Of a stretch of DNA of 53,930 nucleotides, positions 872-5,024 are shown one piece after another. The notes under the pieces were generated by a model. It did not search any database. It worked only from the letters and a program-made list of their open reading frames with translations, and was not told where the DNA came from. Position 1 is the stretch's first letter, and the number at the start of each line of letters is the position of its first letter. Origin of the DNA: Armatimonadota bacterium. Its GTDB lineage: Bacteria > Armatimonadota > UBA5829 > DSUL01. The DNA lies in the NCBI GenBank assembly GCA_039811685.1, contig JBDHZC010000010.1:1-53930 (forward strand). The letters run 5' to 3'. A program made the position numbers and the translations under genes.

Positions 872-900
872 TTGACAGGGCGGAGGAGCAGGACTACGCT
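872..900 (+). promoter_or_regulatory. Sigma70-like promoter pointing into the repeat array
   Basis: TTGACA (872-877), 17-nt spacer, TACGCT (895-900). Confidence 0.6.
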
Positions 901-1043
901 AACAAAAATAGCTCATCGCCGTATTGGGCGCAGGCCCGGCAAAGCGCCTGGTGGACCGCAACCCAATGCCGCCACTACCGCTAGCCTTCGGAGGGGGTGC
1001 AGACAAAATACGATGAATAAAGTAATAGTGCGGCTCTTGAATA

Positions 1044-1123
1044 TTTCGGGATTTCCGGGTTGGAGCCCGGTCTTATCCGGGTTCTGCAAGTCTCAATGTC
1101 CAACCCTCAAATCCCGAAACACC
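1044..1123 (+). repeat. Type A palindromic unit, copy 1 (forward), followed by a 40-nt tandem duplication of its right arm to 1165
   Basis: TTTCGGGATTTCCGGGTTGGAGCC - 30 nt - GTCCAACCCTCAAATCCCGAAACACC. Confidence 0.92.
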
Positions 1124-1268
1124 GAATAAGTCTCAATGTCCAACCCTCAAATCCCGAAGCACCGAGATTTTACTGTCGCCACTGCGTCCGCTTGGTGAGC
1201 ATCTGTTGGACGCCGGTGGGTTTACCTGGGGCCTTGGCGCTCGGTGTAAACACCACCCTCGACTGTTT

Positions 1269-1348
1269 GGTATTTCGGGATTTGAGGGTTGGATGTGATC
1301 GCTCTCGGAGTAACGGGCAATCCTGGCTCCAACCTGGAAATCCCGAAA
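1269..1348 (-). repeat. Type A palindromic unit, copy 2 (reverse, unique core)
   Basis: GGTATTTCGGGATTTGAGGGTTGGAT - GTGATCGCTCTCGGAGTAACGGGCAATCCT (30 nt) - GGCTCCAACCTGGAAATCCCGAAA. Confidence 0.92.
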
Positions 1349-1362
1349 TGAGGGGCGTGCCG

Positions 1363-1398
1363 TTCAATGCCTCCAGGTTGGGAAACCTGGAGGGATGA
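1363..1398 (+). repeat. Type B hairpin repeat, copy 1
   Basis: TTCAATGCCTCCAGGTTGGGAAACCTGGAGGGATGA; 10-bp stem CCTCCAGGTT/AACCTGGAGG. Confidence 0.92.
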
Positions 1399-1438
1399 CA
1401 AAATACGATGAAAAAAGTAATAGTGCGGCTCTTGAATA

Positions 1439-1518
1439 TTTCGGGATTTCCGGGTTGGCGCCCGGTCTTATCCGGGTTCTGCAAGTCTCAATGTCCAACC
1501 CTCAAATCCCGAAACACC
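1439..1518 (+). repeat. Type A palindromic unit, copy 3 (forward), right arm duplicated to 1560
   Basis: Same 30-nt core as copy 1; one substitution in the left arm. Confidence 0.92.
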
Positions 1519-1560
1519 GAATAAGTCTCAATGTCCAACCCTCAAATCCCGAAGCACCGA

Positions 1561-1898
1561 GATTTTACTGTCGCCACTGCGTCCGCTTGGTGAGCATCTG
1601 TTGGACGCCGGTGGGTTTCCCTGGGGCCTTGGCGCTCGGTGTAAACACCACCCTCGACTGTCCCGCCAATGTCGGCGACTTCGCTAGGAACATGAGAGGT
1701 CTTGGGTGGTGGCTGAGTACGGTGATCGGTGGCGGGATAATCGTCGGAGGGCCCATCAATTTCCAACCGACGCCGATATTCGGCGTGTTGCCGGTACCTG
1801 GGCCGCCGAACTGGCTAGGAGGGCAGATTGGACTCAATATAGGTGCTGGTGCTTGCTGGGCGTTCGTTTTGGAGGAATTCGAAGGCGGCCCGATCTAG
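1561..1898 (+). pseudogene. 5'-truncated gene fragment, possibly the C-terminal tip of a polymorphic toxin
   Basis: Open frame ending ...GGGIIVGGPINFQ...GGQIGLNIGAGACWAFVLEEFEGGPI*, Gly/Cys-rich and hydrophobic. Its upstream part is repeat DNA, and it is followed 2 nt later by a small membrane gene and an Rhs fragment. The toxin call rests on context. Confidence 0.45.
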
Positions 1899-1900
1899 CT

Positions 1901-2416
1901 ATGGAACCGATAACACGCGGACAAGGCCGGGCCACGGAACAAGCTGCTTTTCCATTGACCTTGGACTATCGCGGGTGGATGGTGTACGTGGTCGCCACCC
2001 ATCCTTACCAAGGGGCGCTGTGGCTGACGCTCGTTACGGTTTTTGCATGGTCGGATGGCCAGCTTGCGTTGCGGGGGAAGATACTGCTGGCCTTGGCCTG
2101 TCTAGCACTACTGGTCTACAGCCGGCGGACGGCCCTGCGCCTGCCGACACGAATCGTGCTGTATGACGATTATTGCGAACTGTATCGCCTGCACGGTGCC
2201 CCCACGCTTGTCCATTTGGACAGCGTCTTACACGTGAGGCAGGCGCACGTGTTTATACTCCACCTGTCCATTGTCTGGACAATGGTCGAGTACTGCGGGG
2301 ACAGCGGCTACAACTGGTTCTTTGTACACAAGAGGCTGCCCGGCTACGCGAAGCTCATGGCGAGAATAGCAGCCTGCAGGCCGGCGCGGGAGCCTGCCGA
2401 TGGAGCTACGGCGTAG
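1901..2416 (+). CDS. Small membrane protein, candidate immunity protein
   Basis: ATG at 1901 just after the TAG at 1896-1898; two hydrophobic segments followed by a beta-rich soluble tail (171 aa). Confidence 0.6.
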   Translation: MEPITRGQGRATEQAAFPLTLDYRGWMVYVVATHPYQGALWLTLVTVFAWSDGQLALRGKILLALACLALLVYSRRTALRLPTRIVLYDDYCELYRLHGAPTLVHLDSVLHVRQAHVFILHLSIVWTMVEYCGDSGYNWFFVHKRLPGYAKLMARIAACRPAREPADGATA

Positions 2417-2679
2417 ACGGCCAACTAACGAAGCTGACGTGGCCGTCGTCCTCGTCGCCGCAGGTACAGGTGCAGTACATTTACACGAAGAACGGCCTGC
2501 GCAAGGAGAGCAAGCTGGGAGACATGGGCAGTGGGTACTACGTGACCAGCTACAGTTATGACACCCAGAACAGGCCCGGCGCAATCAGCCATGCCTATGG
2601 TACAAGCGGGAGTCGCTTTGCCGGCGTGATCTACGACACGCTGGATGAGCTGGGCAACCCGAAGGTGGTCTATGAGTCA
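2401..2679 (+). pseudogene. Rhs/YD-repeat core fragment
   Basis: WSYGVDGQLTKLTWP...QYIYTKNGLRKES...TSYSYDTQNRP...YDTLDELGNP: successive YD-type repeats; no start codon of its own and cut off by a type A unit at 2680. Confidence 0.8.
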
Positions 2680-2759
2680 GGTATTTCGGGATTTGAAGGT
2701 TGGACGTGAGAACCGCCGAATCGCTGGAGAGCTATGGCTCCAACCTGGAAATCCCGAAA
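2680..2759 (-). repeat. Type A palindromic unit, copy 4 (reverse, unique core)
   Basis: GGTATTTCGGGATTTGAAGGTTGGAC - GTGAGAACCGCCGAATCGCTGGAGAGCTAT (30 nt) - GGCTCCAACCTGGAAATCCCGAAA. Confidence 0.92.
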
Positions 2760-2816
2760 GGAGGGGGACGCCGTGAAGTGGAAGAGCATTGACACTGGCG
2801 CAGGCTGCTACTGCAT

Positions 2817-2852
2817 TTCAATGCCTCCAGGTTCGGAAACCTGGAGGGATGA
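2817..2852 (+). repeat. Type B hairpin repeat, copy 2
   Basis: TTCAATGCCTCCAGGTTCGGAAACCTGGAGGGATGA. Confidence 0.92.
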
Positions 2853-2982
2853 ATATCGCAATCGTTGTACAGATCCCTCGGGGGTCGACTGCTCACAGAT
2901 TCCTCGTGGAGGTGGCGAGCAATGAACCGCGTGTTCCTGATCGTCCTGTGGTCTTTGGCATCTGTCGTTGAGGGGCGTGCCG

Positions 2983-3018
2983 TTCAATGCCTCCAGGTTG
3001 GGATACCTGGAGGGATGA
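2983..3018 (+). repeat. Type B hairpin repeat, copy 3
   Basis: TTCAATGCCTCCAGGTTGGGATACCTGGAGGGATGA. Confidence 0.92.
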
Positions 3019-3057
3019 AAAAACACCATGAAAAAAGTACTAGTGCGGCTCTGAATG

Positions 3058-3137
3058 TTTCGGGATTTCCGGGTTGGAGCCCGGTCTTATCCGGGTTCTG
3101 CAAGTCTCAATGTCCAACCCTCAAATCCCGAAACACC
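3058..3137 (+). repeat. Type A palindromic unit, copy 5 (forward)
   Basis: Matches copy 1 including the core; no arm duplication. Confidence 0.92.
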
Positions 3138-3170
3138 GAAAACAATGTCCTCCTGCGTGGCTGAAAAGAT

Positions 3171-3386
3171 GTGTGGTCAATGCGCCTGTCACTGAGGCCG
3201 ACGGGGCCGCCTAGCCGCAGCCAGCGCTGGGCGGCCTGCATCAACTTGGCGCTCGGCATAGCGGGCTTGTGCATGGCCACCGCCGGGCCAGCGGCGTTCG
3301 GTGCAAAGGAATTTGCCGTGGCGGGGCTAGCTATTGCCGGCATTGTGAATGTGGCCATCGGCGTCTATGTGCTTCTGCGGCGCTAG
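3171..3386 (+). CDS. Small two-TM hypothetical protein, candidate immunity protein
   Basis: 71-aa ORF with two hydrophobic helices ending LLRR*; follows a short ORF tail ending TGA at 3164. Start may be ATG 3180. Confidence 0.5.
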   Translation: MWSMRLSLRPTGPPSRSQRWAACINLALGIAGLCMATAGPAAFGAKEFAVAGLAIAGIVNVAIGVYVLLRR

Positions 3387-3399
3387 GTGCAGCCTTATT

Positions 3400-3428
3400 C
3401 CATCCCTCCAGGTGTCCTCACCTGGAGG
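3400..3428 (-). repeat. Type B hairpin repeat, copy 4 (inverted, diverged)
   Basis: CATCCCTCCAGGTGTCCTCACCTGGAGG: reverse-oriented B with a changed loop and intact stem. Confidence 0.8.
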
Positions 3429-3451
3429 AGGCGACGGGGCATATTCAGGTA

Positions 3452-3487
3452 TTCAATGCCTCCGGGTTGGGAAACATGGAGGGATGA
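3452..3487 (+). repeat. Type B hairpin repeat, copy 5
   Basis: TTCAATGCCTCCGGGTTGGGAAACATGGAGGGATGA. Confidence 0.88.
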
Positions 3488-3559
3488 AAGCAGCCTCGCG
3501 AGCCGGAGCGTGGTTAAGAGTCTTTTGGTGGGAAAAGCGAGGGGCTGGGCGGTGGCATA

Positions 3560-3631
3560 AGCCGACGACAGGAATCGAACCCGCAACCGGCTGTTTACAA
3601 AACAGCTGCTCTACCATTGAGCTACGTCGGC
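3560..3631 (-). tRNA. tRNA-Thr(TGT)
   Basis: Minus strand GCCGACGTAGCTCAATGGTAGAGCAGCTGTTTTGTAAACAGCCGGTTGCGGGTTCGATTCCTGTCGTCGGC; anticodon loop TTTGTAA. Confidence 0.95.
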
Positions 3632-3809: not shown

Positions 3810-5024
3810 CTAGCCGCCTGTATAGCCACTCTCGCGCAGGGTCTGGCTCACCAGAGACAGCGGTAGCTCGTTCTCCAGCATCATGGCGATGACCGTCATG
3901 AATGGGGCGATGTGCGTAAAAAAGGTTTTGTACCCGCTGCACAGATAGTTCAGGCCAGGTTCGCCGTACGGGCTAAGGGCGAAGCGGTGTTTCGGACAGC
4001 CTCCGTTACAGGCAAAAAGCACCGGGCACTCGCGGCAATACCCGGGCAGCGCGTCCTGCTTTTCCGCTCCAAACCTCTGTTGGAACGGGGACAAAGCCGG
4101 CCTGTGAACTCCCTGAGTGCGAATATTGCCGAGATAGTGACCACTCTCCAGATACTCTTCACACGAGAAGATATCACCGCCGGCCTGAACAGAAACGTTG
4201 GCCCCGCACGTTCCGGCGTGTACGCAGAAGCTGGAAGTGCATCCGCGGAAGCTCTCCATCGCGGCATCAAAATGCTGTACGTGAATGCGTCCGGCGTCGT
4301 GGCTCACCCACTCATCAAAAATCCTGGTAAGGAACTCACCAAAGCTCTCCGGATCTACGGACCACGGCGAAAGCCTGTCTTCATCGACGTGCTCGACGCA
4401 GGGTGAAAACTCTATAACGCGCACCCCTTCTTCGCGCAGGAAGCTGTACACTTCAAGAGGTGACCCTGAGTTGACGGAAGTGATAGAGCAGCGAACGCGG
4501 CACCGCGCACCGGTGCGCTGCAGGCGCTTCAGGGCCCTGTAGGCCGTGCTGAAGCTGACGCCTTTTCCGGTAAGCCGATGGAGATCATCGTGCAGGCGGG
4601 AGGGACCGTTCAGCTCAATGGCCACATCGAAATTGTGCTCTGCCAGAAACCGGCAGGTGTCAAGGTCCAGGCCTTGTCCGGAAGTCAGCAGGGTGTTTGC
4701 GCAGGTAACAGACTCCGGCGAATGCTCTTTCTGAAGCTCGACGACTCTCTGAAAAAAGCGCACGCCGGGGTTTGGGGACTCAGCGCACTGCCAGGTGAAG
4801 TTAGCCAGCGGCCCCGAATACGAACTCAGATAGTCACGCACTGTCTGTGCGAGCAGTTCATCTGACACGGCGGCGCGTTGAGAGTCGTGCGGCAGAACAC
4901 CATTTCCGCCGCGAAACGGATGGAAAACGAGATTGAACGTTCCTGGTTTTGACGGCTCAGGCGTCTGTGATTTGTCCAGATCCGCCTTTGACGCGCGACG
5001 CCGCTGCTCTCTCATGACAGTCAT
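3810..5024 (-). CDS. Anaerobic sulfatase maturase-like SPASM-domain protein lacking the CxxxCxxC motif
   Basis: anSME-like body (FGEFLTRIFDEW, CVHAGTCG, GDIFSC, CRECPVLFACNGGCPKHR, LNYLCSGYK); no radical SAM cysteine triad at the N-terminus. Confidence 0.85.
   Translation of the reverse strand: MTVMREQRRRASKADLDKSQTPEPSKPGTFNLVFHPFRGGNGVLPHDSQRAAVSDELLAQTVRDYLSSYSGPLANFTWQCAESPNPGVRFFQRVVELQKEHSPESVTCANTLLTSGQGLDLDTCRFLAEHNFDVAIELNGPSRLHDDLHRLTGKGVSFSTAYRALKRLQRTGARCRVRCSITSVNSGSPLEVYSFLREEGVRVIEFSPCVEHVDEDRLSPWSVDPESFGEFLTRIFDEWVSHDAGRIHVQHFDAAMESFRGCTSSFCVHAGTCGANVSVQAGGDIFSCEEYLESGHYLGNIRTQGVHRPALSPFQQRFGAEKQDALPGYCRECPVLFACNGGCPKHRFALSPYGEPGLNYLCSGYKTFFTHIAPFMTVIAMMLENELPLSLVSQTLRESGYTGG

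Follow-up and report, generated by a model that had tools for sequence, protein, structure and literature searches.

Type A units in the window and in related genomes

The window analysed in this study is a 53,930-nt contig (C10) of an Armatimonadota assembly (G000; 3.42 Mb, 15 contigs). It carries a cluster of repeats, here called type A units, in which two conserved inverted arms enclose a variable core. Five units lie inside 1044-3137, three on the minus and two on the plus strand, and each reads 26+30+24 nt once oriented alike, as a preliminary description of this DNA had reported. An arm pattern allowing ≤3 mismatches gave 12 matches in the window, all within 1044-3133; 0.01 were expected by chance, and 12 were reached in none of 100 shuffles. 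Ten of the 12 are the arms of the five units, and the other two (1139-1159 and 1534-1554) lie in two half units (~1127-1163 and ~1522-1558) that are absent from the preliminary description. Each half unit is a tandem duplication of the left arm and the first ~11 nt of a core of the family that we call alpha. In addition, a direct duplication of 265 nt (1002-1266 and 1397-1661, 99% identical) contains, in each copy, an alpha unit, a half unit and ~100 nt of flank. The cluster is flanked by tRNA-Tyr and tRNA-Thr genes, and its units occur in both orientations within 2.1 kb at irregular spacing. The units with the two other core types, beta and gamma, are followed by pieces of a gene for a REP-associated tyrosine transposase (RAYT; REP, repetitive extragenic palindrome). 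The type A units and their companions in the window are:

1044-1123, minus strand: type A unit with alpha core, the 3' type relative to the transposase gene; DNA fold z = -5.7
1127-1163, minus strand: half unit made of the tag and the left arm plus ~11 nt from the start of the alpha core; arm CTTCGGGATTTGAGGGTTGGA, 1 mismatch
1269-1348, plus strand: type A unit with gamma core, a 5' type relative to the gene; DNA fold z = -4.9
1349-1362, plus strand: remnant of the transposase-gene leader, TGAGGGGCGTGCCG, ending at the start of a type B hairpin; from alignment with the other beta and gamma copies
1439-1518, minus strand: type A unit with alpha core, within the second copy of the 265-nt duplication; from arm match and fold
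1522-1558, minus strand: half unit, second copy of that at 1127-1163; from arm match
2680-2759, plus strand: type A unit with beta core, a 5' type relative to the gene; starts exactly at the end of an RHS-repeat-like frame
2760-2820, plus strand: ribosome-binding leader GGAGGGGGACGCC and the first 16 RAYT codons (2773-2820, VKWKSIDTGAGCYCIS), then broken off; from tblastn
3058-3137, minus strand: type A unit with alpha core; DNA fold z = -6.9

The same arm pattern gave 34 matches in the whole of G000, and the reversed-pattern control gave none. The genome holds 15 complete units on six contigs, together with one truncated unit, one cut by a contig end and two half units. The three window cores had been described as largely unrelated. 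They read as quoted, and the three alpha copies in the window are identical, but the supposedly unrelated cores resolve into three genome-wide families: alpha, with seven complete and two partial copies, beta with five and gamma with three. Cores within one family differ at 4-6 of 30 positions, by point changes.

Among 41 related genomes, arm matches occur in 18 and are absent from 23. The relatives G032, G030 and G038 have 369, 70 and 47 matches, respectively, and in G032 these correspond to ~185 units, which are spread without gene remnants. Short and middle hairpins are also found on the same base stem (115 in G030, 58 in G032, 18 in G035, four in G038 and none in G000), and the relatives together display a size series of ~23, 33, 43 and 75 nt on one base stem. 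An exact-pattern scan of public genomes found at least 125 loci, and among the matches listed nearly all are in Armatimonadota metagenome-assembled genomes (MAGs). At three public MAG loci (L058, L035 and L068), in the high-copy genome, the unit lies within longer outer stems of at least two kinds. There the units are interleaved with another hairpin repeat (GCGGGAAC...GTTCCCGC), and one copy sits inside a (GGAGTTA)n microsatellite.

Hairpin anatomy, tag and variable top

Folded as single-stranded DNA, the window units form an outer stem of 11-13 bp, a 2x2 internal loop in which GA stands opposite GG, an inner stem of 7-8 bp and an open top. The fold z-scores of the five units range from -4.4 to -6.9, and none of 200 shuffles folds equally well. 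Read along one strand, a unit begins with an unpaired 5' tag, GGT or GTT, which is followed by the stems. The outer stem of 12 bp pairs R-TTTCGGGATTT with AAATCCCGAAA-Y, and the inner stem of 7-8 bp pairs GGGTTGG-R with Y-CCAACCY, leaving a variable top of ~34-36 nt. The consensus of 36 diverse units contains 20 pairs, three of them with compensatory changes. The conserved internal mismatch noticed in the preliminary description is real: every unit examined has the GA/GG loop, both the window units and the 36 aligned ones; for the 32 public units among the latter this is partly by construction, since GAR and YGG were fixed in the pattern used to find them. Within the inner stem, pair seven varies on both sides among the 36 units (G-C 17, A-T 4, C-G 2, G-T 3, broken 10). 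No Rfam family matched at gathering scores, nor at E <= 1 on window positions 900-3550.

The tag is one-sided. A G-K-T-N motif stands 5' of the hairpin in 140 of 141 units, with GTTG in 68, GGTG in 54, GGTA in 14, and GGTC and GGTT in two each; the remaining unit has GTAT. Its fourth base pairs with the base after CCCGAAA (G-C in 26, A-T in two and G-T in three of the 36 aligned units). On the other side of the unit, a GCCG beyond the 24-nt arm had been placed at 8-10 nt. The motif is present, but at 10-14 nt, and in beta and gamma units it belongs to a leader that is conserved (GGGGGACGCC-GTG) and ends in the start codon of the transposase gene or its remnant.

The variable top is nearly constant in length. 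Scanned with a pattern that admitted 25-45 nt, the stretch from GGTTGG to CCAACC measures 36 nt in 97 of the 141 units, 37 nt in 35, 35 nt in five, 38 nt in three and 41 nt in one. At 75% single-linkage identity the 141 cores fall into 20 clusters, with lengths of 35-38 nt in every cluster bar one 41-nt core. This threshold was adopted in place of one at 62%, which merged nearly all cores, whereas shuffled cores reach up to 72% identity. No shared structure was predicted for the variable top. A search of the region against 50,697 phage and 72,556 plasmid records gave no core match at E <= 1, the unit was not found in viral contigs, and with ≤6 mismatches allowed the cores had no match in the rest of the G000 genome outside units.

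This combination of fixed length and free sequence had been taken as the sign of a molecular ruler. Within type A the length is indeed kept while the sequence drifts, but the property is not general to the system. In the relatives, the same outer stem encloses insides of a few nt to ~70 nt, which gives no support to a general ruler. The near-constant length of the top would most likely reflect descent by substitution together with the need to keep the hairpin. A ruler in the enzyme may be another reading of the kept length, beside descent with few indels.

The partner transposase gene, its flanking hairpins and neighbouring features

The partner gene was found by aligning the DNA 3' of the beta and gamma units. 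In this alignment a ribosome-binding leader is conserved and leads to a start codon, beyond which the copies differ by synonymous codon changes. In one copy, outside the window, the frame continues for 177 codons (contig C5, 24076-24606, minus strand, TTG start). The 177-aa protein carries the motifs IMPTHVHLL (HUH) and NYIHANPVRRGLV (Tyr), and it matches the NCBIfam model NF047646, 'REP-associated tyrosine transposase', at E = 3.2e-21 and 75.8 bits over profile positions 8-146 of 146. Its orthologues in G035 and G038 score above the NCBIfam cut-off (82.3 and 90.9 bits vs 80). The closest solved structure by sequence is 4er8_A, the TnpArep of E. coli (TnpA_REP), at E = 4.8e-5; in that structure (4ER8) a RAYT is bound to a REP hairpin. 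An AlphaFold model of the protein (pLDDT 89) has 4er8_A as its best fold match too (E = 6.3e-9, TM 0.63/0.68), followed by IS608, ISDra2 and IS200 transposases, with E about 1e-7 to 1e-5 for the IS608 and ISDra2 TnpA proteins. H59, H61 and Y137 are invariant in all seven aligned homologues. With its tyrosine motif of the form Y-x-H-x-N-P, the gene is predicted, from its sequence and the structural model, to encode a Y1 HUH transposase of the RAYT clade.

The units and the gene tend to occur together. A RAYT homologue at E <= 6e-27 is found in all five genomes with at least nine arm matches, and at E <= 1e-5 homologues occur in 14 of the 18 arm-positive vs four of the 23 arm-negative genomes. 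In G030, two contigs (C65 and C143; L154 and L169) end inside the RAYT gene. Their 5' halves are 95% identical over 458 aligned nt, the upstream hairpin included, and several further C-terminal RAYT pieces are present. The gene is therefore multi-copy in G030, with at least two copies. IS200-type genes were also considered as partners and were rejected, as the PF01797 matches in G032, G030 and G038 are not flanked by units.

G000 also holds a second, distinct RAYT-like gene (C3:184704-185180; L146:4181-4777), which scores 76.5 bits (E = 1.9e-21) against NF047646 and shares 29-32% identity with the first. It has inverted GCTGCGGGAAT / ATTCCCGCAGC arms on both sides, with type B hairpins slightly further out, and a 36-residue N-terminal fragment of the first RAYT follows directly after it.

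The intact gene on C5 is bounded by type A units on both sides. On the 5' side, the end of a beta unit in the orientation of the gene lies 13 nt from the TTG start; on the 3' side, an inverted alpha unit follows the stop at a distance of 20 nt. The two units are inverted relative to each other; therefore, their tagged feet face outwards. The orthologue on contig C169 of G032 (55% identical) has the same two-sided inverted layout, in which the 5' unit has another inner stem (GGAGCG with CGCTCC) within the same 75-nt span. The orthologues in G038, G035 and G030 are flanked by hairpins that share the base stem (TTTCGGGA...TCCCGAAA) and have other insides. These hairpins are 23 nt long in G038 (TTTCGGGAC-5 nt-GTCCCGAAA), take the 43-nt form in G030, and measure ~95 nt in G035, with ~70 nt between 11-nt stems.

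Remnants of the gene lie beside many units. The leader and N-terminus of the gene stand 3' of each of the five beta units, and at one of these the gene is intact. Three others have remnants of 15-16 codons (C3:183711, C10:2773 and C11:960), and the beta unit at C11:281 shares a remnant (C11:193-149) with an abutting gamma unit. All three gamma units keep the leader, and the C11 gamma unit is then followed by an 11-residue remnant (C11:34-2) that runs up to the contig end. The window remnant (2773-2820) is 69% identical to the intact RAYT over 16 residues (tblastn E = 0.05 when taken alone). On C3 and C11, another four N-terminal remnants, 11-16 residues long, stand 3' of beta or gamma units, besides the longer one of 36 residues on C3. 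The alpha units at C5:5808 and C9:135834, as well as the cut alpha copy at the end of C9, adjoin C-terminal remnants, and beside the C1 alpha unit the spacer downstream of the stop codon is preserved. In the window, all three alpha units border on a different flank, in which no gene remnant is recognisable. Because of the remnants beside the units, we read beta and gamma as the 5'-end hairpins, and alpha as the 3'-end hairpin, of one gene-plus-hairpins element. Since many units still carry bits of gene ends, the G000 units look like relics of several former whole-element copies. The window cluster is a heap, or 'graveyard', of element ends, consisting of five units, two half units and two cut-off 5' pieces of the RAYT gene.

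Stops occur in all three tag-strand frames of every unit, and the longest open frames across the 15 G000 units are 48-194 aa. The frame 1395-1895, which runs across the unit at 1439-1518 and was the sole unit-spanning frame scanned, had no Pfam match, and open reading frames (ORFs) neighbouring units gave sub-threshold Pfam matches only. An upstream gene that reads into the unit in a fixed frame was rejected, since the upstream open frames are mostly short and their frames differ. The plus-strand frame 2173-2709 has a weak RHS-repeat match (E = 0.0028, below the cut-off), and the beta unit supplies its last codons and stop; a YD/RHS-type gene may have been interrupted here by the unit or by a rearrangement. 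Further downstream, a 404-aa ORF (3810-5024, minus strand) has radical SAM and SPASM matches, all sub-threshold, and no obvious CxxxCxxC motif near the N-terminus was seen when its translation was read by eye. It may be a decayed maturase-like gene.

G000 contains other hairpin repeats as well. The type B repeat (CCTCCAGGT-6 nt-ACCTGGAGG) forms a hairpin of 9 bp with no mismatch and usually has GATGA after it. In the window, type B hairpins lie at:

1363-1398
2817-2852
2983-3018
3398-3428
3452-3487

A loose type B pattern (≤3 mismatches, both strands) gave 70 matches in the genome, which correspond to 35 sites. Some 25 of the 35 appear to be genuine, and most of these share their islands with type A units. 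On C5 (72018-80706), a related hairpin, GCTCCAGGTGGGGACACCTGGAGA, occurs seven times at intervals of 1.2-1.9 kb, each time with the same ~25 nt on its 5' side.

Interpretation and comparison with known systems

Our data make it very probable that type A units are REP-like hairpin repeats, with an anatomy close to that of REPINs (hairpins formed by REP doublets), and that they are recognition elements of a RAYT, an HUH/Y1 single-strand DNA transposase. The analysis itself shows the hairpin with its tag and internal loop, the motif-bearing gene and its fold, units on both flanks of the gene in two genomes, and a joint occurrence of gene and units across relatives. The C5 layout is that of a REPtron, and it contains the only intact gene of this RAYT in G000. 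By analogy with the enzymes of E. coli, Stenotrophomonas and Marinomonas, the RAYT would bind the folded, tag-bearing strand, reading the tag and the stem irregularity, and would cut single-stranded DNA beside the hairpin, so copying or moving hairpins. In the parts of Corneloup et al. 2021 (PMC8266576) drawn on here, E. coli TnpA_REP binds the folded REP strand only, requires the 5' tetranucleotide and a bulge in the stem, and cleaves at a CT dinucleotide adjoining the hairpin. We infer that the same cleavage mechanism may apply to the G000 RAYT.

Several observations weigh against this interpretation. GTAG, the tag of the classical RAYT-linked REPs (PMC3733652), is present in none of the 141 units. 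Neither arm contains its own reverse complement and pairing is from arm to arm alone; judged from its arms, the unit falls outside the strict definition of a REPIN as two REPs in a doublet. An exact scan pattern was used to collect the 128 public units, which in part accounts for the invariance of their arms. The G000 protein falls just below the curated cut-offs (75.8 vs 80 bits for NF047646 and 16.3 vs 23 bits for Pfam Y1_Tnp), and a PF01797 search of G000 gave no match. The genomes compared are relatives, and the association counts are not independent samples. G029 has six arm matches without a RAYT homologue, and G037 has a homologue (E = 1.7e-31) without arm matches. In G032 the closest RAYT (C169:30330-30860, minus strand; L152:1501-2031) has two in-frame TGA codons. 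No movement was seen: assembled contigs of four sequencing runs, which cannot show rare excisions, contain no joints.

The preliminary description had offered three options for the unit: a guide or spacer displayed in a stem-loop, a two-site recombinase substrate, and the junction of two abutted element ends. The latter two disagree with what was found, since the unit is one hairpin with a one-sided 5' tag and flanks an HUH transposase gene on both sides in inverted orientation. The more general view of the unit as a folded DNA element, probably recognised by protein, is upheld. It is hardly credible that the 30-nt core is an acquired or programmable guide that directs a nuclease or recombinase, as CRISPR RNAs or IS110 bridge RNAs do. 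Such a guide would suit conserved arms round a variable core of near-fixed length, as well as the division of 141 units into 20 core clusters. However, the cores matched nothing among the phage and plasmid records or elsewhere in G000, the unit was not found in viral contigs, and within a family the cores differ by point changes, like diverging copies. Because the cores are diverged copies without external matches, the guide reading fails the test of refutation set for it beforehand. In addition, the arms are inverted rather than direct, the spacing is irregular, the same outer stem also occurs with insides of a few nt, and the associated gene is an HUH transposase. To our knowledge, HUH transposases do not use such guides. 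We also consider it very improbable that the units are miniature inverted-repeat transposable elements (MITEs) of a cut-and-paste transposase, with the arms as terminal inverted repeats, or integron attC-like sites bounding cassettes. Inverted arms, scattered copies, a copy number that varies among relatives and small ORFs between units are all in keeping with these elements, and a layout of stem, bubble, stem and variable top resembles attC sites. Against this, there is a conserved difference between the arms, with GAG in one and CGG in the other, the tag is on one strand only, and the GTT/AAC boxes are in the inner stem rather than at the outer ends, where attC sites have their RYYYAAC and GTTRRRY boxes. 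The occurrence of both orientations in one cluster and the scatter of units over many contigs are unlike cassette arrays. The flanks read show no consistent target duplication: the unit in the GGAGTTA microsatellite gives an ambiguous reading of 4-6 nt, and the other flanks are further outer-stem sequence. A larger parent element was sought as well. Among the solo arms examined in G032, no larger element with another transposase was found, and most of these arms had a partner arm with a few mismatches or stood at contig ends.

The chance is small that the units act mainly as RNA, as stem-loops for mRNA stability, transcription end or translation control of the next gene. Contigs of two metatranscriptome runs cover parts of 1043-1897 and 2974-3604, including some units and some unique flanks, and one 224-nt contig spans 1294-1517 with no differences. 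The same runs have zero depth at 600-1015 and 1952-2887 and almost none (0.66 in X16) at 2888-2991, and RNA contigs also carry alpha units of other loci. The stems of beta and gamma units contain G-T pairs, and units stand directly 5' of a ribosome-binding site, with the hairpin ending 13 nt before the RAYT start codon. However, contigs from RNA libraries are no proof of transcription and give neither strand nor ends. Both unit orientations occur within 2 kb, no Rfam family appears even at the relaxed threshold, and the copy number ranges from 0 to ~185 among relatives. With arms that hardly vary and a tag on one side, the units seem to be recognised by a protein through their sequence and not just their shape. 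A secondary role in RNA stays compatible with a RAYT origin, as REPs are known to be co-opted in this way.

With the units read as RAYT recognition elements, a further idea concerns the way in which the system spreads. The clade may catch a RAYT between two life styles, with the whole element multiplying in G030 and G000 and the hairpin alone taken off in G032, and the top, 35-38 nt long across 20 unrelated sequence clusters, may have a length that the enzyme or a host partner truly requires, which would make it a second contact point and a real ruler. We hold this to be unlikely. Signs for the two life styles are the 95% identity of at least two gene copies in G030, the relics of both gene ends in G000, and the ~185 hairpins in G032, where the closest gene is broken.

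The REP-like interpretation accounts for a striking repeat with no need of a novel guide or recombination system and extends REP/RAYT systems to Armatimonadota, for which our literature searches found no REP/RAYT report. It presents a tag other than GTAG on an unusually long hairpin of two stems. It also accounts for features of the assembly such as contigs that end at repeats and spurious ORFs that run through them. The graded series of hairpins provides material on the growth of REPs into REPIN-like elements and on what the transposase reads.

Comparison with the REPINs of Pseudomonas fluorescens SBW25, as far as they are presented in the portions of Bertels and Rainey 2011 (PMC3116915) used here, shows extensive likeness. 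In both, two conserved inverted regions enclose a less conserved spacer that keeps its length and the capacity to form a hairpin, and in SBW25 too the spacer length is kept while the sequence varies. Both form a long hairpin with compensatory changes, occur as scattered copies and tandem clusters, and flank a short (~500 bp) HUH/Tyr transposase gene. Unlike the SBW25 REPINs, type A units have arms that are not palindromes, form one long hairpin rather than a REP doublet, and carry the tag GKT(R). REPIN-linked RAYTs are described as single-copy in the sections of PMC3337134 and bioRxiv 10.1101/119735 that bear on this point, whereas many G000 units carry gene-end remnants and the gene occurs in G030 at least twice, in copies of 95% identity.

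Group 2 REPtrons, which include E. coli TnpA_REP with its y and z REPs and the Marinomonas REPtron Ma, share with the C5 locus the REP hairpins flanking the gene and the conserved irregularity of the stem (PMC8266576, same parts). In these systems the enzyme acts on one folded strand and the unpaired 5' tetranucleotide matters, cleavage of group 2 REPs depends on the stem bulge, and some REPs are long (38-42 nt), their loops being large and of low conservation. Type A units differ in being about twice as long (76-80 nt), with two stems, a top of ~34-36 nt and a tag other than GTAG. The G000 RAYT, known here from its sequence and a model, matches 4ER8 best, yet with 17% identity in the structural alignment.

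The superfamily of GTAG-tagged REPs has stems of 5-13 bp, loops of 2-20 nt and the tags GTAG, GYAG, GYRG, GTRG, GTMG or GTGG, according to the parts of Di Nocera et al. 2013 (PMC3733652) considered here. Like them, type A units are stem-loops tagged at one end by an unpaired motif, with families that differ in stem and loop. They likewise lie in either orientation, cluster, are linked to a RAYT and vary widely in copy number among species (PMC3733652). Unlike them, type A units carry the tags GTTG, GGTG and GGTA on a far longer hairpin and belong to the phylum Armatimonadota; the phyla named for the two tag families in those parts are Proteobacteria, Cyanobacteria, Chloroflexi, the PVC group, Chlorobi, Bacteroidetes, Spirochaetes and Thermotogae (PMC3733652).

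With the IS200/IS605 family (IS608 and ISDra2), the system shares an HUH/Y1 transposase whose fold matches and imperfect sub-terminal hairpins on one strand. A further likeness lies in the indications that the gene is present in several copies in G030 and once was in G000. The type A hairpins that flank the gene are mutually inverted, whereas the end hairpins of IS608 are both read on one and the same strand. The NF033573 IS200 model gives E = 0.11, far poorer than the RAYT model. Two narrower definitions, by the GTAG tag and by a strict REP doublet, do not describe the type A units. In repetition, in the hairpin, in flanking a RAYT gene, in the motifs and fold of its product and in the irregularity of the stem, the system works like a REPtron with its REP/REPIN repeats.

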